Shown here piece after piece: positions 5,899-62,756 of a stretch of DNA of 64,000 bases. Position numbers and translations under genes: made by a program. Origin of the DNA: an uncultured Candidatus Saccharibacteria bacterium (GTDB lineage Bacteria > Patescibacteriota > Minisyncoccia > JAHISW01 > Tagabacteraceae); contig CAZRMW010000002.1 in the NCBI GenBank assembly GCA_964601305.1, positions 3,439 to 67,438 on the forward strand, given 5' to 3'. The stretch's first letter is position 1. Every line of letters begins with the position of its first letter. The notes beneath the pieces were generated by a model. It was not told the DNA's origin, did not search any database, and saw only the letters and a list, made by a program, of their open reading frames with translations.

Positions 5899-7287
5899 TT
5901 ATTTATACAGGTAATCCCTAATTTTTTGTATATCACCTTTAATTTGATGATTGGTTTTTAAATCTCTTGATATTTTTTCATAAGCATGGATTACTGTGGT
6001 GTGGTCTCTTCCACCAAGTTTCTGACCAATATAAGGGTAAGATGCTTTAAAATCTTCTCTAAGTAAGTACATTGCTATTTGTCTTGGTAGAACATATTCT
6101 TTTCTTCTGGATTTTTCAAAAATTCTATTTTTTTCTATTTCATAAAATTCAACAATTGTTTCAATGATTTTATTGAAGGTAACTTTTTTTCTAGAGTAAA
6201 AAATATTTTTATTAATTAAATCTTTTAATTCGGTGGTTGTTAGATTTTTATCAAGAAGTTTTGTTTGCGCAGAAATAACATTTAAAGAACCTTCAAGCTC
6301 TCTAACATTATTTTTTATTATAGAAGCTATATATTCTATAATTTCTTTTGGTAATTCTATATTTTTTTCTGTTGATTTAGAATTTAAAATAGCCAATCTT
6401 GCTTCGTATTCTGGTCTTGATACATCGGCCATCATTCCTCCTTCAAATCTTGTTTTAAGCCTATCCTCAAGGTCTGGAATAGATTTTGGAGGTCTATCTG
6501 ATGAAAATATAATTTGTTTGTTGTTTTCATAGAGAGTGTTAAATATATGGAAAAACTCCTCTCTAGTTTTTGTTTTTCCAGACAAAAACTGAACATCATC
6601 CATTATTAATAAGTCATATTTTTTATATTCTTCTTTAAATTCGTATGTTTTGTATTTCTGAATAGATTGAACAAGATTACTTGTAAATTTTTCTGATGTT
6701 GTGTATTTAATTTTAAAATTTTTATTTTTTTCTCTTAATTTATTTCCAATAGCTTGAAGTAAGTGTGTTTTTCCAAGACCAGATTCTCCATACACAAATA
6801 GTGGATTATAAACAGATCCTGGATTTTTAGTTACTGCTATGGCCGCAGCATGAGCAAGTTCATTAAAAGAACCTACAATAAAATTATTAAATGTATATCT
6901 TTTATTTAAAGAACTATTATCTTCATATATATTAGAAAAACCTAATTGTGTTGTTGTATTTATATTTTTTTCTATTTTTTCATTTTCTTCTACAATTTTA
7001 AATATTTTATTTGTATTACTTTGAATATTAGAACAAATTATATATTCAACAGCTCTTATAGAAGGATCTATTTTTCTAAAAGCTCCTATTATAAATTTAT
7101 TATATTTGTTTTGTATCCATTCTTTTGCAAAACTATTAGGAACACTTAAAAAAACAATACCATTTTTTGTTTTATTTATATTAGTATTTTTAAACCAAGT
7201 TATAAAATTAGCTTTGGATATAATAGATTCTATTTCTAATAGAACTTTTTCCCAAACTTCATCTTTATTTGTCTGTTCTATAGTCAT
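5899..7287 (-). CDS. dnaA: chromosomal replication initiator DnaA
   Basis: Walker A GESGLGKTHLL, AAA+ core, and C-terminal DnaA signature helix-turn-helix (VLPRQIAMYLLRE...GGRDHTTVIHAYEKI). Confidence 0.95.
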   Translation of the reverse strand: MTIEQTNKDEVWEKVLLEIESIISKANFITWFKNTNINKTKNGIVFLSVPNSFAKEWIQNKYNKFIIGAFRKIDPSIRAVEYIICSNIQSNTNKIFKIVEENEKIEKNINTTTQLGFSNIYEDNSSLNKRYTFNNFIVGSFNELAHAAAIAVTKNPGSVYNPLFVYGESGLGKTHLLQAIGNKLREKNKNFKIKYTTSEKFTSNLVQSIQKYKTYEFKEEYKKYDLLIMDDVQFLSGKTKTREEFFHIFNTLYENNKQIIFSSDRPPKSIPDLEDRLKTRFEGGMMADVSRPEYEARLAILNSKSTEKNIELPKEIIEYIASIIKNNVRELEGSLNVISAQTKLLDKNLTTTELKDLINKNIFYSRKKVTFNKIIETIVEFYEIEKNRIFEKSRRKEYVLPRQIAMYLLREDFKASYPYIGQKLGGRDHTTVIHAYEKISRDLKTNHQIKGDIQKIRDYLYK

Positions 7288-19225: not shown

Positions 19226-20322
19226 TATTGTGTCAGTTTTTTTTCAGCTAACTTTAAAAAATTGTTTATTAATTTTGACATTTCTTCTCTAATTTTTTGG
19301 TTTTCCTCTAGAGATAAGATTGTTCGTAGTGGGTCATCCTTAATTTTTTTAATATTTTCATATACTTTTTGTGTTGCTATAAAAAGCTCAACTTCTCTTT
19401 TGTGAATTTCTAAAAAATCAGATGGCACTAAAACTTTTTTCATATTTTTTGCAGAAATTTTGTAGTGTTCTATAAAATCGTCTATTTTTTTAAAATTTTC
19501 TGTTTGTATTGCTTCTTCTAAAATATCTTCTTCTGTTTCTTTGTGTGGTATTTCTGGAATAGCATCACCAACAGCTAATAGATATTTATTTATAGATGCT
19601 GGAGAATTATCTGAAGTAATTTTAAATTCAGAAGCTGGAATTTTTGTATAAAAACCAGATACAAAAGCAAGGAGTCCTTGATTGGTGTCTGAATCTAAAA
19701 GAGCAAAAACATTTTCTGTTTCAATTTGGTCTATTTGGGAAGGGTCTTTTATGTGCGAGCTAATAGTTTGCGCAAAGCTCTGTGTAAGATTTGAGTTTTC
19801 TGAGGCTGTTTTTGTATAAACTGGCGCCTTCTCAGATTTTTTACCGGTGTCTGGATTTGAGAGTGGGTCTAGCGGATCGTACCCAGATTGTGTTTCTTTT
19901 CCATCAGTGTGTCCGTCTTCGTCTGTGTCTGGATTATTTACATCTGTTTTCCAGAGAGTTTCCTCCCAATCTCTTAGACCATCTTCGTCGGTATCTAGAT
20001 TAACTTTTTCAACCATTTTAGGTGTGAGTAGGGCAGAAGTTTTTTCGTAAATTGTTTTTGGCTCTTTGTTTTTTACAAATAAAAACCAGCTTCCTAAGCC
20101 AAAAATGCCCAGCCCAAGCAGGATTACCAAAATAATTATTATTTTGTTTTTCACCCTTTTATTGTACCACTTTTTTATGGCTTTATTGTTGAGTTTTTTG
20201 GGGATAATTATTGTGTATTGACAAAATAAGCAAAAAATGCTTTTATGTGTAGAGAAAACGAGATAAATCTCGCCAGAGGCGAGTAAATTTTTAAAAAATA
20301 AATACAAATTTTTGAAAGCCAC
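19225..20322 (-). CDS. membrane-anchored protein with thrombospondin type-3-like Ca-binding repeats (first gene of the T4SS-like operon)
   Basis: TM segment IIIILVILLGLGIFGLGSWFLF followed by DTDEDGLRDWEE...NPDTDEDGHTDGKE (DxDxDG repeats). The annotated GTG start at 20322 and the first ~55 codons are doubtful; the real start is probably near 20160. Confidence 0.5.
   Translation of the reverse strand: MAFKNLYLFFKNLLASGEIYLVFSTHKSIFCLFCQYTIIIPKKLNNKAIKKWYNKRVKNKIIIILVILLGLGIFGLGSWFLFVKNKEPKTIYEKTSALLTPKMVEKVNLDTDEDGLRDWEETLWKTDVNNPDTDEDGHTDGKETQSGYDPLDPLSNPDTGKKSEKAPVYTKTASENSNLTQSFAQTISSHIKDPSQIDQIETENVFALLDSDTNQGLLAFVSGFYTKIPASEFKITSDNSPASINKYLLAVGDAIPEIPHKETEEDILEEAIQTENFKKIDDFIEHYKISAKNMKKVLVPSDFLEIHKREVELFIATQKVYENIKKIKDDPLRTILSLEENQKIREEMSKLINNFLKLAEKKLTQ
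20265..20284. repeat. hairpin repeat AAATCTCGCCAGAGGCGAGT, copy 1
   Basis: Identical 20-mer at 58495-58514; stem CTCGCC/GGCGAG. Lies in the leader of the T4SS-like operon. Confidence 0.6.
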
Positions 20323-22417: not shown

Positions 22418-22528
22418 TATCGACATCCGATGTCGATAATTGAATATATGGCTTAAAATGGTAGAAACCACCTAAATGTAGAGCTACATTTAGGTGGTTT
22501 GTATCTGTTGGAAGCTAAGCTTCCAACA
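22418..22528. repeat. three consecutive perfect hairpins
   Basis: TATCGACATCCGATGTCGATA (22418-22438); a 17-bp stem AAACCACCTAAATGTAG...CTACATTTAGGTGGTTT (22465-22500); the palindrome TGTTGGAAGCTAAGCTTCCAACA (22506-22528). Confidence 0.7.
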
Positions 22529-22554
22529 GGTGAGAGGGAGTCTATTTGTGAGCT

Positions 22555-22581
22555 TGACAAAGTACATAGATGTAGTATAAT
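22555..22581 (+). promoter_or_regulatory. sigma70-type promoter (TTGACA, 15-nt spacer, TATAAT)
   Basis: TTGACA at 22555-22560 and TATAAT at 22576-22581, upstream of ORF 22671. Confidence 0.5.
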
Positions 22582-22670
22582 GTAGATAGAAAATAAAAGC
22601 CCCCGCCGAGCGGGGTAAATTGAAAACATAAATATAGATTTTTTGACAGCCTGCGGGCGGGGAGGTTCTG

Positions 22671-23122: not shown

Positions 23123-23935
23123 TTACACCCGGCCGTTTTTAATTTTTTTATATAAACAATCCCAATCTTCTAAAGATAGATTTTCTGGGCGGGATTTTTC
23201 TGGAATGTTGCAACTCTCCAAAATATTGCCAGAAATATTTAAATTATTTTTTAGCATTTTTCTTTTTTGAGAAAATCCTTTTTTAATCATCTCAAAAAAT
23301 TCCTCCTCATCTATTCTGTTGGAAGCCGAGCTTCCAACACTTCCAACAAAAAAGTTTTTGGAGATATTTGATATTTTTAGTACTACAGAATCTACTTTTG
23401 GCTTTGGTATAAAATGTTTGGCAGGCACATTTTTTACTATTTTAGGCTCACCGTAAGCCCTTACGCTAATTGAAAGTACGCTGTTTTTTATTTTGCTTTT
23501 TTGTTTTTTTGCTTTTTTGTTTTTTTGTCCGACAATTCTTTCAGCAACTTCTTTTTGTACCATTAAAATTATGTCACTTGGCTGGTAATTGCTAGATAAA
23601 AATTTTTTGAGTATTTTGCCGGTAATGTAGTAGGGAATATTAGCGACAATTTTATAATTAGTGTACGGCAGTTCGCTGTCTTTAATATCTAAAATATCTT
23701 TATTTATCAACTCTAAATTGGTAATGCTAGAAAACTTTTCTTTTAGATTTTCAAAAAGTCTCTCGTCTTTTTCTATAGCAATTACCTCCTCGGCTTTTTT
23801 AATAAGTTCTTCTGTTAAGATTCCTTTGCCTGGACCAATTTCTAAAACGGTGTCGTTTTTTTCGACTTCTGCTAATTCAACAATTCTTTTTGCAATATTG
23901 GGAGATGTTAAAAAATTTTGTCCGAGTTTTGCCAT
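23123..23935 (-). CDS. rsmA: 16S rRNA (adenine1518/1519-N6)-dimethyltransferase
   Basis: KsgA motifs VLEIGPGKGILT, ANIPYYIT and FIPKPKVDS; contains the in-frame palindrome TGTTGGAAGCCGAGCTTCCAACA (23317-23339). Confidence 0.85.
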   Translation of the reverse strand: MAKLGQNFLTSPNIAKRIVELAEVEKNDTVLEIGPGKGILTEELIKKAEEVIAIEKDERLFENLKEKFSSITNLELINKDILDIKDSELPYTNYKIVANIPYYITGKILKKFLSSNYQPSDIILMVQKEVAERIVGQKNKKAKKQKSKIKNSVLSISVRAYGEPKIVKNVPAKHFIPKPKVDSVVLKISNISKNFFVGSVGSSASNRIDEEEFFEMIKKGFSQKRKMLKNNLNISGNILESCNIPEKSRPENLSLEDWDCLYKKIKNGRV

Positions 23936-27591: not shown

Positions 27592-27619
27592 TTGACAAAA
27601 TATATAAATAAGGTATAAT
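27592..27619 (+). promoter_or_regulatory. sigma70-type promoter (TTGACA, 16-nt spacer, TATAAT)
   Basis: Lies just after the M23 gene terminator (27560-27585) and upstream of the first Zn-ribbon gene. Confidence 0.55.
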
Positions 27620-28573: not shown

Positions 28574-28715
28574 TTCGTTTTCGGGCGATATTGTAGAGCC
28601 TCATAAACCCCGCCGAGCGGGGTAAATATGAGGCTTTTTTATTGACTTAGAAACACAGAATTGTTAGTTTGTAATAAGAAAAACCTTGAAATATAACCCA
28701 AAAAGGAGACAACCA

Positions 28716-32217: not shown

Positions 32218-34380
32218 TTAATTTTTATAACGAGGAATGTTTGGTTTTGTTGGGTGTTTTGGTTTTCCAAAGAAGTTTGGATCGGCTAACTTTACAGATA
32301 AACTTATTTTACCATTTATTTTGTCTACTTCTTTTATCTTTACAGGAATTGTGCCACCTTCTTTTACTAAATCAGTTACATTTTCAACTCTAAATGGGGC
32401 AAGTTCAGAAATATGCACTAATCCTTCTATTCCAGGCTTTATTTCTGTAAAAGCTCCAAAGTCCATAATTTTTACAATACGTCCAGTAAACATTTCGCCT
32501 ACTTTTGGTTCGTATGTTACATCTTCAACCATGGTTTTAGCTTTTTCTAAACCTTCCTTACTGTCTCCGGTAATAAATACTTGCCCTTCTTCGTCGATAT
32601 CTATTTGTACACCAGTTTCATCAATAATTTTGTTGATAGTCTTTCCTCCTGGGCCGATTAGCGCACCTTTCTTTTCTGGGTTTATAGTAAGGATTAATAT
32701 TTGCGGTGCATATTGAGAGGTTTCTTTTCTCGGTTCTGGTAGTGTTGTGAGAATATTTTCTAAAATTTCTTCTCTTGCTTTCTTACCTTGAGTTAATAAA
32801 TCTCCAAGCATCTTTGTAGTAAGACCCTTCACTTTTACATCCATTTGCAAAGCTGTAATTCCGTTTTTTGTACCAGCTGTTTTAAAGTCTGCATCTCCGT
32901 GGTGGTCTTCTGGTCCTTGAATATCGGTAAGTACTTTGTAAGAGTTGTCGTCTTTTACCATTATACCCATAGCGATTCCTGAAACAGGGGCTTTTATAGG
33001 TACTCCAGCATCCATAAGTGCTAATGTGGAGCCACAAACAGATCCCATTGACGATGATCCATTTGAAGACATTGTTTCAGAAACGACCCTAATTGTATAA
33101 GGGAAATCCTCTTTGTTTGGAATAACTGGCCTTAGAGCTTTTTCTGCAAGTGCGCCGTGTCCGATAGCTCGTCTATTAAATCCACCCAATCTTCCAGTTT
33201 CTCCTACAGAGAAAGGAGGAAAATTATAATGATGCATAAAACTTTTCTTTTCTCTTACTTCCATACCTTCGATTATTAGAAAATCACTAGGAGCTCCAAG
33301 TGTAGCTACAGAAAGCATGTGTGTTAGGCCTCTGTAAAAAACACCTGTTCCGTGTGTGCGGGGAAGTACCCCTGCTTTGGTAGATAATTGTCTTATTTCA
33401 TCTAATTTTCTTCCATCTGGTCTTACATCGTTTTCTAAAACATTTTTATGGATAGTATCGTCTATCATTTTTTCAAAATAATCACTCACCTGGTTTTCGT
33501 AAAATTCACCAAGGTTGTTTTCTGCTAGTTCTTCCCACTCTTTTTCAAGTTTTCCTAAAACAAAGTAATGCTCCTTTCTTTCTTCCTGGCTTACCACTGG
33601 TTCTGTAAGTGCTTTTTCAAGCCTCTCTTGAATATTTTTTTTGAAAAGTTCTTCCATTCCCTCTGGGTTTTCCTTTAGTTCTGGCCAAACTTTTTCTTTT
33701 CCAATTTCTTTTATTATTTTATTTTGAAAATCTGTAATTTTTTCCATCTCTGGCATTGCTACTTCTAAAGCCTTGAGTATATCTTCTTCTGGAACTTGGT
33801 TTGCACCACCTTCTATCATATTTACTTTCCCTTCTCTCCCACAAACAGCCAAATTTATGTCAGATTTTTCTTTATCTTCGTATGTTGGGTTTACAACAAA
33901 CTTTCCGTCTATTCGGCCTATTCTTACTGCTCCAATTGGGCCATCCCATGGAATATCTGAAGTAGACAAAGCCAAAGAAGCAGCAATAATTGCTGGTATG
34001 TCTGGATCGTTCTCTTCGTCTAACGAAAGAGGAGTAACGACAATTTGAATGTCGTTTCTGATTCTTTTATCAAAAAGAGGACGAAGTGTTCTGTCTATCA
34101 TTCGGCTGTTTAAGATAGCCTCGTCAGATGGCCTTCCTTCTCTTTTCATAAAGCGACCACCTAAAATTTTACCTGCAGCATAAAATTTCTCTTCGTAATC
34201 TACTGTAAGAGGGAAGTAGCTTATACCTTCTCTTAACCCCTCAGACATTACAGCCGTGGCCATTATGGTAGTTTCTCCATATTTTACGGTGACTGATCCG
34301 TTTGCCTGTTCTGTGAGGTCTGAAAATTCAGCAACAAGTGGTCGTCCACTAAAATCGAGTTCGTATTTTTTTGTTTTCAT
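32218..34380 (-). CDS. pnp: polynucleotide phosphorylase
   Basis: Two RNase PH domains plus C-terminal KH and S1 domains; lies downstream of rpsO. Confidence 0.9.
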   Translation of the reverse strand: MKTKKYELDFSGRPLVAEFSDLTEQANGSVTVKYGETTIMATAVMSEGLREGISYFPLTVDYEEKFYAAGKILGGRFMKREGRPSDEAILNSRMIDRTLRPLFDKRIRNDIQIVVTPLSLDEENDPDIPAIIAASLALSTSDIPWDGPIGAVRIGRIDGKFVVNPTYEDKEKSDINLAVCGREGKVNMIEGGANQVPEEDILKALEVAMPEMEKITDFQNKIIKEIGKEKVWPELKENPEGMEELFKKNIQERLEKALTEPVVSQEERKEHYFVLGKLEKEWEELAENNLGEFYENQVSDYFEKMIDDTIHKNVLENDVRPDGRKLDEIRQLSTKAGVLPRTHGTGVFYRGLTHMLSVATLGAPSDFLIIEGMEVREKKSFMHHYNFPPFSVGETGRLGGFNRRAIGHGALAEKALRPVIPNKEDFPYTIRVVSETMSSNGSSSMGSVCGSTLALMDAGVPIKAPVSGIAMGIMVKDDNSYKVLTDIQGPEDHHGDADFKTAGTKNGITALQMDVKVKGLTTKMLGDLLTQGKKAREEILENILTTLPEPRKETSQYAPQILILTINPEKKGALIGPGGKTINKIIDETGVQIDIDEEGQVFITGDSKEGLEKAKTMVEDVTYEPKVGEMFTGRIVKIMDFGAFTEIKPGIEGLVHISELAPFRVENVTDLVKEGGTIPVKIKEVDKINGKISLSVKLADPNFFGKPKHPTKPNIPRYKN

Positions 34381-34403
34381 AATAATGTTGTGCGACAGAT
34401 ATT

Positions 34404-34461
34404 ATTACGAATTCATGCGAATGACACTAATATAAATTGGTATAATTCGTATGCATTCGTA
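34404..34461 (-). promoter_or_regulatory. pnp 5'-leader imperfect inverted repeat (TTACGAATTCATGCGAAT / ATTCGTATGCATTCGTAA)
   Basis: 16 of 18 positions complementary, arms at 34404-34421 and 34444-34461 with a 22-nt loop, immediately upstream of the pnp start. Confidence 0.4.
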
Positions 34462-34513
34462 ATTTTTATGTCACTATTAATTTTTAATTTTAACAACTAA
34501 TAATTTTATTGGG

Positions 34514-35017
34514 TTATATTAAGTATTTTTTTTGGCTTTCACCTAAGTCTGTAAAATCGTCTGCACTTTCTTTTAATTTTGCAGAAGTAGATTTTTCAAA
34601 AGATATTATTTCTGTTTGGATGCCCTTGTTTGATTTTAAATATTCAACCAAAGGTACAAAATCTCCATCGCCAGTAACCAAAACCACAGCATCCATTTGG
34701 CTAGACAGCTTAATAGCATCTACTGTAATACCTACATCCCAATCGGCTTTTTTCATTCCACCATGAAATATTTGTAAATCTTTTACTTTTAGCTCTATCC
34801 CTATTTTTTCTAAAGCTTCAAAAAAAGATTTTTCTTCACCGCCTTCTGTTCGTATTACATATCCAATGGCTCGGATAAGTTGTCTATTACCAACTGCTGT
34901 TTTTAATACTTCTTTAAAATTAACCCTTTTTTTATAAAGGGCTTTGGCAGAGTGATACATGTTTTGAACATCTATCAGCACAGCAACTCGCTGATTTTTG
35001 TGTTTTGCTAATGGCAT
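34514..35017 (-). CDS. NYN/LabA-like (PIN-fold) domain protein
   Basis: VAVLIDVQNMY...VLVTGDGDF pattern typical of NYN/LabA nucleases; inserted between rpsO and pnp. Confidence 0.55.
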   Translation of the reverse strand: MPLAKHKNQRVAVLIDVQNMYHSAKALYKKRVNFKEVLKTAVGNRQLIRAIGYVIRTEGGEEKSFFEALEKIGIELKVKDLQIFHGGMKKADWDVGITVDAIKLSSQMDAVVLVTGDGDFVPLVEYLKSNKGIQTEIISFEKSTSAKLKESADDFTDLGESQKKYLI

Positions 35018-35036
35018 TTTTATAAAAGTTCAGAAA

Positions 35037-35366
35037 TTATTTAGAAACCTTTTTACTTGCCCCGCTCGGCGGGGTTTTTTTATCTGCAAGAGAACGGTTT
35101 CTTTTTAGTCCAAGTTTTTTGCTTATAGCTAAATAACTCTCTTCATTCTTTTTCTTTAAATAATCCATCAGTTTTTTCCTTTTTGAAACCATTTTAAGAA
35201 GGCCTCTCCTTGAATGATTGTCTTTTGGTTGGCTTTTTAAGTGACTAGTAAGCTCTTTTATTTGCTCTGTAAGCACAGCAACTTGCACCTCTGAAGAACC
35301 AGTATCTTTTTCATTAATACCGTATTTCTTGATGATTTTTTGTTTTTCTTGTGTTTTCATCGCCAT
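35037..35366 (-). CDS. rpsO: 30S ribosomal protein S15 with a C-terminal extension
   Basis: [52 protein letters not shown] matches S15. A 20-aa tail (…[14 protein letters not shown]) is encoded through the palindrome CCCCGCCGAGCGGGG (35060-35074). Confidence 0.85.
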
Positions 35367-36029: not shown

Positions 36030-36590
36030 ATGAAAAGAGAAACAACAATTATAGTGGGGAAAATAGTCTTAGCAACTGTTGCATCAGTTGGTCTTGTGAG
36101 TATGGCAGTATTGGCTCCAAATGCAGTTCAATGCTTGGAAATGTTTTGGGGCAAGGATAAAAGAAAATATAGTCCCAAATACCATGTTAATAAAACGATA
36201 TCTAAATTAAAACAACAAGGTTTAATAAAATTTGAAAATAAAAATGGTAAAAGTTTTGTACGACTCACCCAAAAAGGACAAGAGAGGTTGCTTAAATATC
36301 AACTCCAAGAACTAAAAATAAAAAAGACAAAAAAATGGGACAAAAAGTGGAGAGTAATTATTTTCGATATAAAAGAGAACAAAAGGTATATAAGAGATGG
36401 GTTAAGAATAGAATTAATTAGATTGGGTTTTGTGAGGCTTCAAAACAGTGTTTGGGTACACCCATATAAATGCGATGATGTAATAGCGATGTTTAAGGCG
36501 CATTTCAAAATTGGCAAAGATGTTTTATATATGACGGTTGAGAATATAGAAAACGATAAGTGGTTGAAGGAGGAGTTTGGATTAGTCTAA
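36030..36590 (+). CDS. winged-helix protein with PaaX-C/Cas2-like C-terminal domain
   Basis: N-terminal TM, a wHTH-like segment, then WRVIIFDIKENKRYIRDGLRIELIRLGFVRLQNSVWV (Cas2/PaaX_C-like beta-alpha pattern). The domain assignment is tentative. Confidence 0.35.
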   Translation: MKRETTIIVGKIVLATVASVGLVSMAVLAPNAVQCLEMFWGKDKRKYSPKYHVNKTISKLKQQGLIKFENKNGKSFVRLTQKGQERLLKYQLQELKIKKTKKWDKKWRVIIFDIKENKRYIRDGLRIELIRLGFVRLQNSVWVHPYKCDDVIAMFKAHFKIGKDVLYMTVENIENDKWLKEEFGLV

Positions 36591-37300: not shown

Positions 37301-38182
37301 ATGTCGCAAAACATCAAAAAACTAAAAAACCAATATTTGGAATATATAGAAATAGAAAGAGGGCGTGCGCTTAAAACAGTTGAGAATTATGATAGATATT
37401 TGAAAAAGTTTTTTGATTTTTCTAAAGTTAAAAATCCGCAAGATATAAAAGATGAGACAGTTCGTAAATATCGTTTGTATTTAAATAGAGAGGGACTGAA
37501 AAAGAAAACACAAAACTATTATTTAATTGCGCTTAGAAATTTTTTAAAGTATTTAGCAAAGTTAGATATAAAAAGTTTGCCTCCGGAAAGAATAGAGCTT
37601 GCGAAAGTTGGGCAGAGGCAATTGGATTTGGTAAGTGGTGACGACCTTGAGAGGCTTTTGAGTTCACCGAAAGGCGCCTGCGAGGCTGATTTAAGAGACA
37701 AAGCTATTTTAGAGCTTCTTTTTTCTACAGGGCTTCGAGTGTCAGAACTCTGTGGTCTTAATATAGATAGCATAGATTTGAAGAAAGATGAGTTTTCTGT
37801 GAGAGGGAAGGGGGATAAAGTAAGATTGGTTTTTTTGTCAGGAAATGCTAAAAGTGCTGTGAAGAATTATTTAGATAAAAGAGCAAATATAGATGAAGAA
37901 GCAATGTTTGTAAATATAAGATCGGGAGGTCGGTTAACAGCAAGATCGGTGGAAAGAATCGTACAAAAATATGCCACTTTGGCAGGGATTTCTAAAAAAA
38001 TGACGCCCCATGTAATAAGGCATTGTTTTGCTACGGATCTTTTGGAATCGGGAGCAGACTTACGCTCGGTACAGGCACTTTTGGGGCATAGCAATATTAC
38101 TACTACTCAAATTTATACACACGTTACCGATAGACAGCTGAAAGAAATTCATAAAACCTTTCATGGAAAAAAGCGCCGATAA
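37301..38182 (+). CDS. xerC: tyrosine recombinase XerC/XerD
   Basis: The R..H..R..Y catalytic set: LFSTGLRVSEL, HVIRHCFATDLL, LLGHSNITTTQIYTHV. Confidence 0.85.
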   Translation: MSQNIKKLKNQYLEYIEIERGRALKTVENYDRYLKKFFDFSKVKNPQDIKDETVRKYRLYLNREGLKKKTQNYYLIALRNFLKYLAKLDIKSLPPERIELAKVGQRQLDLVSGDDLERLLSSPKGACEADLRDKAILELLFSTGLRVSELCGLNIDSIDLKKDEFSVRGKGDKVRLVFLSGNAKSAVKNYLDKRANIDEEAMFVNIRSGGRLTARSVERIVQKYATLAGISKKMTPHVIRHCFATDLLESGADLRSVQALLGHSNITTTQIYTHVTDRQLKEIHKTFHGKKRR

Positions 38183-38805: not shown

Positions 38806-38837
38806 TCGCTAAGTGTGATTTATCCCGCTCGGCGGGG

Positions 38838-46869: not shown

Positions 46870-46923
46870 TATAAAAAACAAAAAGCGACGGGGAGCCCGT
46901 CGCTTTGAATTATTGATAATTAA

Positions 46924-48385: not shown

Positions 48386-48608
48386 TATTTTTGTTAGTGG
48401 TATAATCAAAGTAGTTATTTGAAGATTTGTTTTTAGGTTAAATTGTTTTTCTAGGGAGTCTTATATTGGGCAGTGTCGACGGATTTGTTCTGGATATTGC
48501 TTCTGCGGGCACCCACCTGAAAAGTAGCTAAAAACACTCTTTTAAATAACTTGCCCCGCCAGGCGGGGTGAACCTCGCTCCTTGTTTTCAAGGGGCGTTG
48601 GTTTTTTT

Positions 48609-51802: not shown

Positions 51803-51928
51803 TTTGTTTGCTAATACTTGGTTTTTTTGTTTATTTTTTGTTATAATTCTAAGGAAGAAAGCGCAGAGAGTCGATTTTAGTTTCCGCCTGAGGCGGACAA
51901 GTTTATATAATTAATTTATTTTTTTAAT

Positions 51929-53607: not shown

Positions 53608-53954
53608 GGGAGTGATCGGCTTTGATAAGAAGCTTCTTTTAAAACAGTGCATATCGAGTATTCTAAAATCTCGTTAAACTTTTAGAGCTTCAAATAAATG
53701 CAAATTTATTTAAAACTCCAGCTTTAGCTTACGCTTAAAGCTCGTTCCCTTACTCATTCTCAATAAGTAAGGAAGAACGTCATCATTGAGATAGATAATT
53801 TTTATTGGGCTTTGAAAAATTATTGAAACAAAACAAAGCCAAAGCTAAGAACTTTTTGCTCGGTTTTTATTTCTTAGTCTAAACAAACCAAGCTAAATAT
53901 GTAGATACTTTTTAAAAATCTTTTTACACGGCGGTTCGATTCCGCCCACTTCCA
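53608..53954 (+). ncRNA. ssrA: tmRNA (transfer-messenger RNA)
   Basis: 5' GGGAGTG pairs with 3' CACTTCC including G3:U70; T arm GGCGG-TTCGATT-CCGCC. PK1 region CAGTGCATATCGAG resembles E. coli GGUGCAUGCCGAG. Tag ORF gca aat tta ttt aaa act cca gct tta gct tac gct taa encodes ANLFKTPALAYA (53700-53738); the GCTTTAGC core is conserved. CCA is not encoded. Confidence 0.85.
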
Positions 53955-54377
53955 CAAAATATTAATTCCCGAAGCGTTAGCTTTGGGGATTTTGATTTTG
54001 TAGGTTGGTGGCGGAATTGAACAGGCGGAGGCGGGCACCGTCGCCGACTAGCGAAGCTAGTGGCGCGCGGTCGCCGAGCCCGGGGAGGAAGTTCTTAGTG
54101 AAGACAAGTGCAAAGCACGAAGTCTGAGCTTAGAAACTTGACCCTCGATTCCGCCCACTTCCACAAAATATTAATTCCCGAAGCGTTAGCTTTGGGGATT
54201 TTGATTTTGTAGGTTGGTGGCGGAATTGAACAGGCGGAGGCGGGCACCGTCGCCGACTAGCGAAGCTAGTGGCGCGCGGTCGCCGAGCCCGGGGAGGAAG
54301 TTCTTAGTGAAGACAAGTGCAAAGCACGAAGTCTGAGCTTAGAAACTTGACCCTCGATTCCGCCCACTTCCACAACT
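53937..54377 (+). repeat. 209-bp tandem repeat (2.1 copies) beginning inside the last 18 nt of ssrA
   Basis: CGATTCCGCCCACTTCCACAA recurs at 53937, 54146 and 54355 with identical 188-bp GC-rich spacers. Confidence 0.9.
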
Positions 54378-56972: not shown

Positions 56973-57164
56973 ATGTCACAGAAAACAAACAAATCATATA
57001 GTAAAAGACTCAAAGTTACCAAAAATGGTAAGGTTGTTCAGCGCAGACCTGGTATGGGGCATTTTAATGCCAAAGAAGAAAGAAAAGGGCAGTTAAAGAA
57101 AAAAAGAACAAAACATTTTAATATTTCAAGTAAAACATTAAGCGGATTTATACCGCACGAATAA
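56973..57164 (+). CDS. rpmI: 50S ribosomal protein L35
   Basis: 63-aa basic protein with a KR.K.T..GK…H… pattern; adjacent to rplT. Confidence 0.65.
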   Translation: MSQKTNKSYSKRLKVTKNGKVVQRRPGMGHFNAKEERKGQLKKKRTKHFNISSKTLSGFIPHE

Positions 57165-57168
57165 AAAA

Positions 57169-57534
57169 ATGGTTAGAATAAAAAGAGGTACAATTTCATT
57201 AAAGAGGAGAAGAAACGTTTTAAAACAAACGAAGGGTTATAAGTGGGGAAGGAAGTCTAAAGAAAGGGCAGCTAAAGAAGCAATTTTTCATGCAGCTACT
57301 CATGCCTTTCAAGACAAAAGAAAAAAGAAAAGAGTTTTTAGAAAATTGTGGCAGATAAAAATAAATGCAGCTGTTCGTCCGCTAGAGGTTTCTTACAGTA
57401 GGTTTATAGACATGCTTAAAAAAGCTGAAGTTGGTTTGGATAGAAAAATATTGTCGCAATTAGCAGAGCACAAACCAGAAGTTTTTAAAAAAGTTGTTGA
57501 AGAGGTAACCCCGCCGAGCGGGGCAAGAAAATAA
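57169..57534 (+). CDS. rplT: 50S ribosomal protein L20 (C-terminal tail encoded by the palindrome)
   Basis: MVRIKRGTISLKRRRNVLKQTKGY…RKLWQIKINAAVR matches L20; the last codons (…TPPSGARK) read through CCCCGCCGAGCGGGG at 57509-57523. Confidence 0.85.
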   Translation: MVRIKRGTISLKRRRNVLKQTKGYKWGRKSKERAAKEAIFHAATHAFQDKRKKKRVFRKLWQIKINAAVRPLEVSYSRFIDMLKKAEVGLDRKILSQLAEHKPEVFKKVVEEVTPPSGARK

Positions 57535-57543
57535 AATAAAATT

Positions 57544-58062
57544 TTGAAGAGACCAAAAATAAACAACGAAATAAGAGCAAAAGAAGTCCGTTTAATAGAT
57601 GAAGAGAAAGGAGATTTAGGGGTTTTTGAAATTTCAAAAGCTATAGAAATGGCGCAAGGGAAGGGGTTGGATTTAATAGAAATTTCAGCAAAGGTAAAAC
57701 CTCCTATTGCTAAAATGATGGATTTTGGTAAGTTTTTATATAAAGAAAAAAGAAAACAGAGAGATGCAGCCAAAAAATCGAGTGGATCGGAAATGAAAAG
57801 TGTAAGGATTGGGCTTGGTACATCTGGAAAAGATTTAGAGTTAAAGGCAAAAAAAGCCTCGGAATTTATAAAAGAAGGGAACAGAGTAAGAGTGGAGCTT
57901 TTTTTAAGAGGAAGAGAAAAATATTTGGATAAAGATTTTTTGAAGGAGAGATTAGAAAGGGTAATAAATTTAATAACTGAAGAGCATAAAACTTTGCAAG
58001 AAATTAGAAAAGGTCCACGAGGAATATTTACTATTATAGAAAAACATGGCAAAAGCAATTAA
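57544..58062 (+). CDS. infC: translation initiation factor IF-3 (non-AUG start: TTG at 57544 or ATT at 57541)
   Basis: [34 protein letters not shown]… matches the IF3 N- and C-terminal domains; no in-frame ATG is available. Confidence 0.8.
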
Positions 58063-58494: not shown

Positions 58495-58514
58495 AAATCT
58501 CGCCAGAGGCGAGT
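58495..58514. repeat. hairpin repeat AAATCTCGCCAGAGGCGAGT, copy 2
   Basis: Identical to 20265-20284; downstream of rplK. Confidence 0.6.
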
Positions 58515-60871: not shown

Positions 60872-61579
60872 ATGTTTATAGTTATTGAAGGTACAGATGG
60901 TACAGGGAAAACGACCCAGTTTAATAAGCTAAAAGAAAAATTGACACAAGAAGGACATAGTGTTGCGGTTTTTGATTTTCCTCAGTATGGAAATCCTTCA
61001 GCTTTTTTTGTGGAAAAATACTTGAATGGTAGATATGGAAGTGCTGATGATGTTGGGCCAAAAAGAGCATCCGTTTTTTACGCAGTTGATCGTTTAGACG
61101 CTTCTTTTAAGATTAAAGAAGCTCAAAAATTAAGAAAGATTTGTTTGTCCAATAGATATGTTGGGTCAAACATGGGGCATCAGGGCGGAAAAATTAAAAA
61201 TGAACAAGAGTTGATAAATTTTTTGGTATGGGTACAAAACTTTGAGTATGGATTAATGGGGATTTCAAAGCCAGATGTTTCAATTATTTTGCATATGCCG
61301 GCAAAGGTTGCACAAACACTGGTTGATAAAAAAGGAGAGAGGGAATATATAGGTGGCAAAAAAAGAGATATTCATGAAGATTCTTTGAGTCATCTTCAAA
61401 ATGCAGAAAAAACTTATTTAAAAATAGCCGAACTGTTTCCGAATGATTTTGTCGTCGTTGAGTGTTTTGAAAATGGAAGAATTTTGTCTGAAGAAGAAAT
61501 CCACGAAAAAATTTATAGCATTGTGAAAAAATTCCTGAAGGTAAGGAGGGAAAGATATGAAAATAACAGAAGAAGATAG
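60872..61579 (+). CDS. tmk: thymidylate kinase
   Basis: P-loop IVIEGTDGTGKTTQ, DRLDAS (DRY-like) and lid region. Confidence 0.8.
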   Translation: MFIVIEGTDGTGKTTQFNKLKEKLTQEGHSVAVFDFPQYGNPSAFFVEKYLNGRYGSADDVGPKRASVFYAVDRLDASFKIKEAQKLRKICLSNRYVGSNMGHQGGKIKNEQELINFLVWVQNFEYGLMGISKPDVSIILHMPAKVAQTLVDKKGEREYIGGKKRDIHEDSLSHLQNAEKTYLKIAELFPNDFVVVECFENGRILSEEEIHEKIYSIVKKFLKVRRERYENNRRR

Positions 61580-62633
61580 TTGTAAAATATATACAGGAAA
61601 TGATCATAAAAAAAAGAAAACAAGAATTATTTGGGCAACTGGTTTACCTTGTAATGGACGAAAAAAAATTTTAAGGGCATGGAAAAAACAAGCTAAAGAA
61701 AAGAAAAAAAATGTCGAAGTTTTTTATGTTGGAGATATGATGAAAGAGCAAGGAAGAACTATTCAAAGAACATGGCCCTCAAGAAATGTTTTGCGAGTAG
61801 CTTCACGATTTTTAGATGAAAGAAAATCTGCTGTCTTTGAAAAAATTCTTAAAAACATTGCAGAAAATTTTTATGATACAGTTGTTATAGTAGACCATTT
61901 AAATTTTCTTTGGGATAACGATTTTTTGGAAGCTCATGCTTCTTTTTCTTATATTCCAGTTGTTCAACCAGATGTTTTTGTTTGTTTTGTAGATGGTCCA
62001 GAAATTATTTCAAAAAGGTTAGCAAAAAACGATATGTGGAAGACACAATCTTTAAGGGCTCAGAACATTATTCTTTGGCAAAGTTCCGAGATAATGCTCA
62101 CAAAGAGTTTGGCAGAATCTCAGAGAAAAAGATGGATAATACTTCCTACAGGAGAGGAAAAGGAAGTTTTTTATGAGATAGCAAAAGATCCAGATGTAGA
62201 ATTGTTTTATATTATGATACCGATTACACACTTACTTGGGAAAGAAGGGGAAGAGGGGAGAAAAAAAGTAGATGATCTTATAAGAATGGTAAAAAAGGCG
62301 TACCCAGCAATGATCAATCCATATACCCTCCCCGTCGGCGACATAAAGATTGCTGGTTATTCAGAAAAATTAAGAGCCATTCATGATCATGTGTTAAATT
62401 TAAACGAAAGATTTATGAATCAGGCGGGCAGTGGAATCGTGCTTATGCCTGACAAGATTCCAAGTGATGGTGTAGGTTATGAACAACCAACAATGTCTCA
62501 AGCGGGAAAGGATGTTTTTACATTTTATCCTCACGATAAAGCAGGTCCACACAAAGCTCGATTTTCGACAAAAATATTTAAAACAATGGAAGAAATGGTT
62601 GAATTTCTTGAAAAAAAAGCTCATCCTGAATAA
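61557..62633 (+). CDS. hypothetical protein (overlaps tmk by 23 nt); possible nucleotide-kinase-like N-terminal region
   Basis: 358 aa; weak P-loop-like IIWATGLPCNGRKK; no confident family. Confidence 0.35.
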   Translation: MKITEEDSCKIYTGNDHKKKKTRIIWATGLPCNGRKKILRAWKKQAKEKKKNVEVFYVGDMMKEQGRTIQRTWPSRNVLRVASRFLDERKSAVFEKILKNIAENFYDTVVIVDHLNFLWDNDFLEAHASFSYIPVVQPDVFVCFVDGPEIISKRLAKNDMWKTQSLRAQNIILWQSSEIMLTKSLAESQRKRWIILPTGEEKEVFYEIAKDPDVELFYIMIPITHLLGKEGEEGRKKVDDLIRMVKKAYPAMINPYTLPVGDIKIAGYSEKLRAIHDHVLNLNERFMNQAGSGIVLMPDKIPSDGVGYEQPTMSQAGKDVFTFYPHDKAGPHKARFSTKIFKTMEEMVEFLEKKAHPE

Positions 62634-62659: not shown

Positions 62660-62756
62660 TGCCCCGCTGAAAAAGTGGGGCTTTTATTTGTGAAAATTCT
62701 ATTCTTACTAAAACTTACGATCGTGAGAAATAACAAGAATAGGGTTTTTGTTTTTG
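62660..62756 (+). terminator. tandem terminators: GCCCCGCTGAAAAAGTGGGGCTTTT, then a CTATTCTT…ACGATCGTGAGAAAT…AAGAATAGGGTTTTTG hairpin
   Basis: The second hairpin belongs to the same family as 48331-48385. Confidence 0.55.

Follow-up and report, generated by a model that had tools for sequence, protein, structure and literature searches.

Short GC palindromes within rpsO and rplT as probable copies of a dispersed insertion element of AT-rich Patescibacteria

The GC clusters of yeast mitochondria are about 30-50 nt long. Mitochondrial GC palindromes of this kind, found in yeast and Neurospora, are dispersed in an AT-rich genome, lie mostly between genes and are considered mobile without a known dedicated enzyme (PMC8811140). 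GC clusters occur in frame in the ribosomal-protein gene var1, causing length polymorphism; their terminal motifs are AG or TAG, and their terminal repeats have been interpreted as target-site duplications (PMC8811140). Conserved mitochondrial palindromes flanking tRNA genes are mentioned in the same source on the authority of Yin et al. 1981 (PMC8811140). In bacteria, Rickettsia palindromic elements (RPEs), ten families of ~150 bp each with a conserved peptide of tens of residues, insert in frame in unrelated, often essential genes, and the protein stays functional (PMC10969869). Repetitive extragenic palindromic sequences (REPs) are extragenic elements of 20-40 bp that bear GTAG or CGTC as a tag at one end, and a RAYT gene co-occurs with them (PMC3733652, PMC2817692). 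Here we analyze a 15-nt palindrome, CCCCGCCGAGCGGGG, in a 64,000-nt stretch of an uncultured Candidatus Saccharibacteria assembly (the window), where it is read in frame near the 3' ends of rpsO and rplT, the genes for ribosomal proteins S15 and L20. The window has a G+C content of 33% and, judged by gene content and best protein matches, belongs to Patescibacteria. We consider it likely that the two palindromes are copies of dispersed, ultra-short GC palindromic insertion elements in AT-rich Patescibacteria genomes.

Mitochondrial GC clusters are the closest analogs; the likeness to them comprises an AT-rich host, GC palindromes, in-frame insertion in ribosomal-protein genes, short end motifs (here CAA or TAA) and adjacency to tRNA genes. 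Unlike GC clusters, which are organellar, the elements are bacterial, measure 15-18 nt and show no target-site duplication, and there is no sequence relationship between the two. Our family is dispersed, polymorphic and occasionally in frame, as GC clusters are, which would be a functional analogy and not common descent. With RPEs, which are also close, it shares palindromic insertion in frame into unrelated protein genes, but the inserts are 15-18 nt (5-6 residues) instead of ~150 bp, the host is not Rickettsia, and no sequence similarity is seen. REPs, and the REP doublets forming hairpins (REPINs) associated with RAYT, are also short, multi-copy GC hairpins with an adjacent short motif and no target-site duplication, and a single-strand mechanism would fit the flanks observed here. 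However, our element is a perfect 15-nt palindrome, not an imperfect one of 20-40 nt, lacks GTAG and CGTC, is frequently intragenic and has an A-rich 5' flank and CAAG or TAAA as 3' flank. Window copies are all single, with none of the inverted pairs that characterize REPINs or bacterial interspersed mosaic elements, and no RAYT gene was found among ~20 window open reading frames (ORFs) compared with Pfam or in the annotation of locus L001 (64-70 kb of the genome). Transposable elements of the miniature inverted-repeat type (MITEs) differ in that here the whole element is one hairpin, without target-site duplication, and that the triplet on its 5' side is variable, in contrast to CAA or TAA on its 3' side. 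Intrinsic terminators have a GC stem-loop of the same size, and the 15-mer followed by T7 is a terminator-like site in unrelated bacteria (L041, L052), but the window copies lack a U-tract on the transcribed strand. The defining features of REPs and REPINs, MITEs and intrinsic terminators are not those of this family.

Palindromic inserts in rpsO and rplT

CCCCGCCGAGCGGGG is a perfect 6-3-6 palindrome (CCCCGC-CGA-GCGGGG). Exact copies occur at positions 22601(+), 28608(+), 35060(-) and 57509(+), as a preliminary description of the window had given them, and dinucleotide shuffles lead us to expect none. Perfect 6-3-6 palindromes with GC-rich arms number nine in the window, against 0.085 expected from simulations (maximum 2). 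The minus-strand rpsO gene (35037..35366; S15 of 109 aa) reads through its copy as AAA AAA ACC CCG CCG AGC GGG GCA AGT..., and the plus-strand rplT gene (57169..57534; L20 of 121 aa, ending ...EEV TPPSGA RK*) as GAG GTA ACC CCG CCG AGC GGG GCA AGA AAA TAA. Translation of the ORFs bears out the earlier observation that both palindromes are in the identical frame and encode TPPSGA. The inserted unit would be the palindrome plus a CAA triplet: 35057..35074 on the minus strand in rpsO (palindrome 35060-35074, CAA at 35057-59) and 57509..57526 on the plus strand in rplT (palindrome 57509-57523). In rplT it sits six to eight codons ahead of the stop.

Comparison with other S15 and L20 proteins delimits what the palindrome contributes. 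In solved S15 structures the last residue corresponds to residue 89 of the window protein (...LGLKR), which continues for another 20 residues: NRSLADKK, the TPPSGA insert and SKKVSK. NRxLADKK is common to ~36 of the closest S15 relatives and is followed there by a hypervariable tail of 0-30 residues; several relatives terminate exactly at ...ADKK*. The palindrome begins directly after ADKK, and among the S15 relatives compared TPPSGA is present only in this organism, including an S15 99% identical to the window protein that bears the same tail. The idea that the palindrome had created tails beyond the conserved ends therefore holds for its six residues and not for the whole S15 tail, in which NRSLADKK is clade-conserved and not palindrome-derived and the rest belongs to the hypervariable part. 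Relatives of L20 measure 114-116 aa and end in ...EKVK* or ...EKVSK*, and TPPSGA is again confined to the window protein. When 18 nt are removed from rplT, the protein ends in ...VVEEVRK* at 115 aa, the length of its closest relative P0122 (...VVEKVSK*), with the original stop retained; the same operation on rpsO yields an S15 ending in ...ADKKSKKVSK*.

The orthologous junctions were compared in GCA_974502465.1 (loci L007-L010; ~75% aa identity), in the single-amplified genome (SAG) AM-311-F06, in GCA_964636095.1 and in the more distant locus L011. No palindrome is present at the rpsO junction in L009, L215 and L011, or at the rplT junction in L007 and L214. In GCA_974502465.1, 20 nt separate rpsO from the following NYN-domain gene (L009) and a single nucleotide separates rplT from infC (L007); across the 68 kb of loci L007 to L010, of which some 40 kb are unique, there is no 6-3-6 GC palindrome. 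In SAG AM-311-F06 (L215) the rpsO stop abuts the NYN start with a gap of 0 nt, and in GCA_964636095.1 (L214), which has the closest L20 (82%), rplT ends ...GTG TCC AAA TGA. The 52 nt between rpsO and the next gene in L011 hold only weak GC hairpins. Window stops align with the stops of the relatives, the common sequence at rpsO being CTAAATAAT (TAAATAAT). The alignment of orthologs suggested in the preliminary description thus indicates that the TPPSGA tails are lineage-specific. The closest relatives, GCA_964636095 and SAG AM-311-F06, carry the exact 15-mer at other loci (L012, L057).

Locus L011 has at positions 343-357, at the very end of rplT, the palindrome CCCCGCCCGGCGGGG, with the same stem and a CCG loop, read in another frame (..IHPARRG*). 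Without it the protein would end in ..EKIH* at 114 aa, and it looks like an independent event at the same gene end. Gene order around both sites is kept in relatives. The order rpsO, NYN-domain gene (a putative RNase) and pnp (window 32218-35366, minus strand) is found in L009 and L215, and L011 has rpsO followed by the NYN gene, which occupies the place of the E. coli rpsO terminator and pnp leader. The order rpmI-rplT-infC (window 56973-58062, plus strand), with infC downstream in place of the usual infC-rpmI-rplT, is also kept; the infC ORF starts at a TTG only 9 nt past the rplT stop.

Filled and empty sites across Patescibacteria

Allele pairs in other genes reveal the insertion directly. 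A cluster of glycosyltransferase family 2 (GT2) proteins at 90% identity has three members with ..CA[CCCCGCCGAGCGGGG]TAAAATT.. and six without it. At the DNA level, two filled and two empty alleles (86-92% nt identity) differ by exactly 15 nt and no target-site duplication is visible; the empty alleles read GATAAAT^TAGAAATT and GATAAGC^TGAAAATT. The two filled alleles are each other's closest relatives (91.6%), which makes the insertion the derived state. A fused MiaB-MiaA gene provides reciprocal evidence, with six additional residues in the MiaB part of L012 where L143 is empty and six in the MiaA part of L143 where L012 is empty. Tryptophanyl-tRNA synthetase (TrpRS) is six residues longer than four solved structures and a Tagabacteria ortholog, and in TatD the palindrome peptide corresponds exactly to a six-residue gap in solved structures. 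Ribosomal protein L4 also exceeds solved structures by six residues, and 16 of 19 relatives read ..L-x-x-P-KTKE, six residues fewer; its DNA in P0241 is 18 nt longer than in the closest relative P0282 (82% nt identity), and a third lineage retains a decayed copy, TTTCGCCGAGTGGGGCAAGT, at the same site. In all, in-frame insertion was encountered in S15, L20, L4, TrpRS, TatD, MiaB, MiaA, arginyl-tRNA synthetase (ArgRS), PheS, IscU and GT2, with filled and empty alleles among orthologs 82-92% identical. The data show that the unit is inserted discretely, is scattered over sites without homology, differs in presence between close relatives, can decay and is tolerated in frame.

Some sites are not readable in this way. 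In KsgA and Fpg the insert lies in a length-variable loop that obscures its size, and a hydrogenase cluster was rejected as a filled/empty pair, since its 406-aa and 412-aa members differ away from the palindrome. Palindromes of other types insert as well: at positions 8979-9008 of L215, a ComM-like (Mg-chelatase) gene contains the tandem, non-inverted 6-3-6 palindromes TCCGCCAAAGGCGGA and TCCGCCTCGGGCGGA, and its protein has eight more residues than the window and L009 orthologs. In L022 (~6250-6340) a PheS linker contains several GC-rich hairpins in a row around the 15-mer, and a second segment of ArgRS in L134 (..FNPLGGASWEG..) may be another inserted palindrome.

We searched public genomes, one per species, for the 15-mer followed by YAAR, and metagenomes for the 15-mer followed by CAAG. 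The genome scan returned at least 103 loci. Some 80 of these are chance matches in high-GC taxa, and at least 20 lie in AT-rich Patescibacteria (at least 13 assemblies), where the number of chance matches expected is close to nil; the metagenome scan added further AT-rich cases. Hosts are labeled Saccharibacteria, Portnoybacteria, Tagabacteria, Roizmanbacteria or 'Patescibacteria group', with up to four loci in one metagenome-assembled genome among the matches listed, and many insertions were recovered repeatedly from separate metagenome samples. Viral contigs yielded no AT-rich contig with the 15-mer, the five matches being chance occurrences in GC-rich contigs, on which ground we rejected carriage by phages. 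Gene calls in the loci compared are longest-ORF calls, and ~70 kb of the genome of the window is covered.

Many copies, in both orientations, lie within long ORFs of conserved proteins, and at least 18 of these coding copies are independent. In sense orientation the inserts are ..NLKL[TPPSGA]SFAKTKE in L4, ..QDDL[TPPSGA]SNIFCVVD in TrpRS, ..TDW[TPPSGA]SKV in a NiFe-hydrogenase-like protein, ..IEI[APPSGA]SSPAFLNF in ArgRS, ..GK[TPPSGV]NW in PheS, ..KLA[NPAERG]KNG in MiaB, ..RLH[NPAERG]KKG in MiaA and ..LIDV[NPAERG]KIP in GT2; Fpg contains one too, and in RsmI the insert forms the C-terminus, ..GN[PRRAG]*, with the TAA of the flank serving as stop. Antisense copies give ..KYDL[APLGGG]IFA in TatD, ..KL[APLGGV]DG in IscU and ..IA[CPARRG]SAK in KsgA. 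Several intergenic copies neighbor tRNA genes at a distance of 5-18 nt (window, L079, L072 and L036); that of L079, 9 nt upstream of a tRNA-Arg gene, parallels the window copy at 38824. The phenomenon is wider than first noted, a phylum-wide family of 15-18-nt in-frame hairpin insertions.

Flanks were examined in 36 non-redundant AT-rich copies among the matches listed. Two subtypes are apparent: the palindrome plus CAA, 18 nt long and adding six residues (six of six readable cases), and the bare palindrome before a TAA-like triplet, 15 nt long and adding five. From the six other insertions with CAA, we infer the 18-nt unit at rpsO and rplT; these independent cases led us to reject a unit of exactly 15 nt placed before an ancestral CAAG, as in L007. 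Sorted by 3' flank, the copies form two discrete classes, CAAG and TAAA, and mixed forms are few (Fisher p = 7e-4, within a genome scan restricted by flank); the base at -1 is A in 24 of the 36 copies (p = 6e-5). A 3-nt target-site duplication (CAA|pal|CAA) was considered and rejected, as the 5' triplet is CAA in only 3 of 19 copies followed by CAA; the gradient xxA > xAA > CAA at the 5' junction more resembles microhomology. The unit is a multiple of three and the 15-mer is free of stop codons in all six frames; the effect of inserting it within a gene is therefore only to add five or six residues. Of the 18 independent genic insertions, 11 use the frames without arginine (TPPSGA and APLGG) where 6 are expected, five use PAERG and two use the three arginine-rich frames (chi-square p = 0.004, all 18). 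This bias implies that the inserts are translated and under purifying selection.

Competing explanations and a possible route of spread

The hairpin could instead be a selected RNA element at gene boundaries, acting as a barrier to 3'-exonucleases or mRNA stabilizer, as a site of processing or as an attenuator (in the rpsO to NYN-pnp or the rplT to infC interval), its overlap with ORFs being incidental. As RNA the 15-mer folds at -10.3 kcal/mol with a 6-bp stem, a stable GC-rich hairpin; all eight oriented window copies are co-directional with the local genes (p = 0.008), which could mean a role at the RNA level; and copies are found at gene ends, in a 5' untranslated region and beside tRNA genes. 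Some other relatives have different GC hairpins in the rplT-infC spacer or downstream of rplK. In IscU (L219, 1164-1183, compared with L128), one ortholog has the antisense 15-mer and another, 90% identical, has CCCCGAC-TGGAGC-GTCGGGG at the same codons and with equal total length; this fits a hot spot for insertion and also selection for a hairpin. On the other hand, exact copies lack a sense-strand U-tract, the gaps at the relatives' hairpin-free junctions shrink to 0-1 nt (L215, L007), and the same sequence stands mid-gene, in both orientations, in conserved enzymes, where a boundary role is impossible. The L4 site includes a decayed copy, and the primary sequence, loop included, is identical across distant classes, beyond what a purely structural need would require. 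A selected RNA element therefore seems to us an unlikely account.

Nor do the exact copies behave as terminators, contrary to the proposal that the family is used as a terminator stem and that several copies are classic terminator hairpins with T-runs. In a consensus terminator scan, 15-mer copies score only antisense to the local genes, at 35059(+), 22615(-) and 38822(+), and T-rich tails are likewise antisense at 22601, 35060 and 38824. The palindrome at 57509 is followed by CAAGAAAA, and the sense-strand sequences after the hairpin are CAAGUAAAAAGG in rpsO and CAAGAAAAUAAA in rplT. The loop of a larger terminator hairpin (~28595-28645, plus strand) houses the copy at 28608. Removal of the palindrome and its TAA leaves AGCCTCAT-AAAA-ATGAGGCT and then TTTTTATT, a canonical terminator, so here the element is a passenger in another terminator's loop; the composite hairpin folds at -31.5 kcal/mol (z = -7.3). 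We rejected the terminator reading of the exact copies on the basis of strand and of the missing sense-strand U-tract: the palindromes do not terminate transcription of rpsO or rplT. An Rfam scan of the whole window at gathering thresholds reported only tmRNA and four tRNAs, with no RNA family at any palindrome and no S15 or L20 leader.

A second alternative is that the 15-mer is a recognition sequence spread by molecular drive, either a DNA-uptake signal, the Patescibacteria concerned being naturally competent, or the binding site of a conserved protein. The uptake sequences of Haemophilus and Neisseria have the same coding and non-coding distribution and frame bias. The 15-mer is identical in many distantly related Patescibacteria and occurs in coding and non-coding DNA with a bias in reading frame. 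Against this, copies arise as discrete 15- or 18-nt insertions and not by substitution, at ~1 per 13 kb their density in the window is low, one relative has none in its 68 kb (~40 kb unique), and a self-complementary hairpin is atypical of uptake signals. We regard this explanation as quite improbable.

Still less credible is the capture of pre-existing terminators 3' of rpsO and rplT, either by loss of a stop codon or by the recombination with terminator hairpins envisaged earlier. On the plus strand the rpsO copy does have a textbook appearance, CCCCGCTCGGCGGGG followed by TTTTTTT, and the identical hairpin with its T-run forms a terminator-like site in the unrelated bacteria mentioned above. 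However, this terminator-like site is antisense to rpsO, and its seven T's arise as the complement of the two lysine codons in the conserved ...ADKK. With three rpsO relatives devoid of a downstream hairpin (save the weak ones in L011), none beyond rplT and both original stops in use, there was no ancestral terminator to be captured, and the junction DNA of the relatives led us to reject both variants. That the inserts are assembly or sequencing artefacts has a negligible probability: chimeric reads can create short GC-rich palindromes, but at least six contigs, drawn from several ENA and JGI metagenome samples, share one 121-aa L20 down to the DNA, which excludes the sequencing error named beforehand as a ground for refutation, other insertions recur in different samples, and reading frames are preserved.

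Besides co-directionality and the IscU site, several observations weigh against insertion elements as the source of the palindromes. The L4 site is filled in three scattered lineages, which requires repeated insertion or precise losses. Not every GC palindrome in these genomes was inserted, as illustrated by GCCCGCGCGGCGGGC in the PHP gene of L214, which is not an insertion. Lacking both a target-site duplication and terminal inverted repeats other than the hairpin itself, the element is not a canonical transposon. A transposase or other mobilizing gene was found neither among the ~20 window ORFs compared with Pfam nor in the annotation of L001 (64-70 kb of genome), and Pfam scans of the ORFs adjoining copies detected no transposase. 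Finally, both public scans demanded a 3' flank (YAAR or CAAG), so that their counts are lower bounds and samples rather than a census. An XerC/D-like gene (37301-38182) is syntenic in relatives and presumably encodes a housekeeping recombinase.

Dispersed insertion remains in our opinion the probable origin. The preliminary description had seen in the palindrome a hairpin element inserted in frame in the manner of RPEs, lengthening S15 and L20, and this view gains from the empty junctions in relatives, the clean insertions elsewhere and the filled and empty alleles. We propose that the unit lands preferentially after an A-rich stretch, without duplicating its target; one copy would have landed directly after ...ADKK of S15 and another shortly before the L20 stop. 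The copies may be non-autonomous insertions, selfish or neutral, whose persistence reflects tolerance in flexible termini, surface loops and terminator loops and in frames coding for small, uncharged residues. Two routes can be envisaged. A trans-acting enzyme may insert the hairpin as single-stranded DNA beside a short motif, as in IS200/IS605 or REP/RAYT systems. Alternatively, copy-choice template switching between copies during replication may be seeded by A-rich microhomology, and the gradient of 5' triplets leans toward this second route. GCCGAGCGG may also resemble the D-arm found in class II tRNAs.

Further features of the window and implications

The remaining palindromes of the window lie outside the two ribosomal-protein genes. 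The exact copy at 22601..22615 (plus strand, TAAAT flank) is intergenic and lies 20 nt downstream of a sigma-70 promoter with a perfect 12/12 match (TTGACA-16-TATAAT, 22554-22581), which places it probably near the 5' end of a transcript. The exact copy in the terminator loop occupies 28608..28622 (plus strand). A member previously listed at 38824..38837 (minus strand), 18 nt upstream of tRNA-Arg(cct), stands as a truncated 14/15 copy, and a loop variant, CCCCGCCAGGCGGGG, lies at 48554..48568, just 5' of the real terminator (48576-48597) after ndk. Two related 6-3-6 palindromes occur on the plus strand: CTCGCCAGAGGCGAG at 20269..20283 (TAAAT flank, in a divergent intergenic region) and again at 58499..58513 (TGAAC flank, between rplK and a dCMP-deaminase gene), and TCCGCCTGAGGCGGA at 51883..51897 (CAAG flank, intergenic). 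An extra 6-3-6 palindrome at 46887 is the inner part of an ordinary terminator stem. The previously listed GCCCCGC…GGGGC hairpin did not stand as a family member; it is an ordinary intrinsic terminator at 62661..62681 (plus strand), GCCCCGC-TGAAA-AGTGGGGC followed by TTTTATTT, after the gene at 61557-62633, and has only the CTTG/CCCCGC start in common with the 15-mer. As previously reported, a flank recurs: CTTG (CAAG on the oriented strand) is shared by sites 35060, 57509, 48554, 51883 and 62662.

Several other features of the window deserve mention. A second, longer palindrome family, (C)TGTTGGAAGC-NNN-GCTTCCAACA(G), appears twice within 1 kb (22505-22529, 23317-23339). The 12/12 promoter sequence recurs at 27592-27619 (+), and canonical sigma-70 promoters appear to be in use. 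Near 20300, genes lying mostly on the minus strand give way to genes mostly on the plus strand, and cumulative GC skew is lowest near 18-20 kb; this region may be a replication origin, and the palindrome at 20269 lies in its divergent intergenic region. Two recurrences of the final 22 nt of the tmRNA gene (TCGATTCCGCCCACTTCCACAA), at 54145 and 54354, delimit an exact tandem unit of 209 nt that occurs twice (53936-54375). This unit is single in two other assemblies of the same organism (L001, L002), and may reflect either an att-like duplication of the 3' end of tmRNA, accompanied by variation in copy number, or a collapse in assembly. The L19 gene (39238-39750, minus) encodes 170 aa, with the Pfam domain reaching residue 111 and a C-terminal extension of ~60 aa, and the L009 protein has the same length; long ribosomal-protein tails seem common in this clade. 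Lastly, the gene at 36030-36590 (plus), which adjoins the XerC/D-like gene, encodes 186 aa that include a PaaX central Cas2-like domain (E = 5e-20).

Literature searches, one of them for the literal sequence, turned up no account of an element of this kind in Patescibacteria or the Candidate Phyla Radiation. It is to our mind an evenly balanced proposition that the family represents an undescribed class of mobile DNA and the smallest known: a perfect 15-nt GC hairpin, inserted as 15 or 18 nt and devoid of a transposase of its own, of terminal repeats and of a target duplication, present in several Patescibacteria classes, repeatedly adding 5-6 residues to essential and universally conserved proteins such as ribosomal proteins and aminoacyl-tRNA synthetases, mobilized by a host or other hairpin-recognizing activity, and a bacterial counterpart of mitochondrial GC clusters.

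If this is true, the element would be a compact and traceable source of insertions and deletions in the most conserved proteins of a large uncultured radiation, and would explain some of the loops and tails that are lineage-specific in the ribosomal proteins and tRNA synthetases of these organisms. Its presence or absence would provide a marker for fine-scale phylogeny and population genetics of Patescibacteria, as well as a caveat for alignments and marker-gene trees. It would also raise the question of what copies a 15-nt hairpin into new sites in genomes that contain few other mobile elements. Seen beside the GC clusters of AT-rich mitochondria, it suggests that a very high AT content and the spread of GC hairpins may be connected in general.

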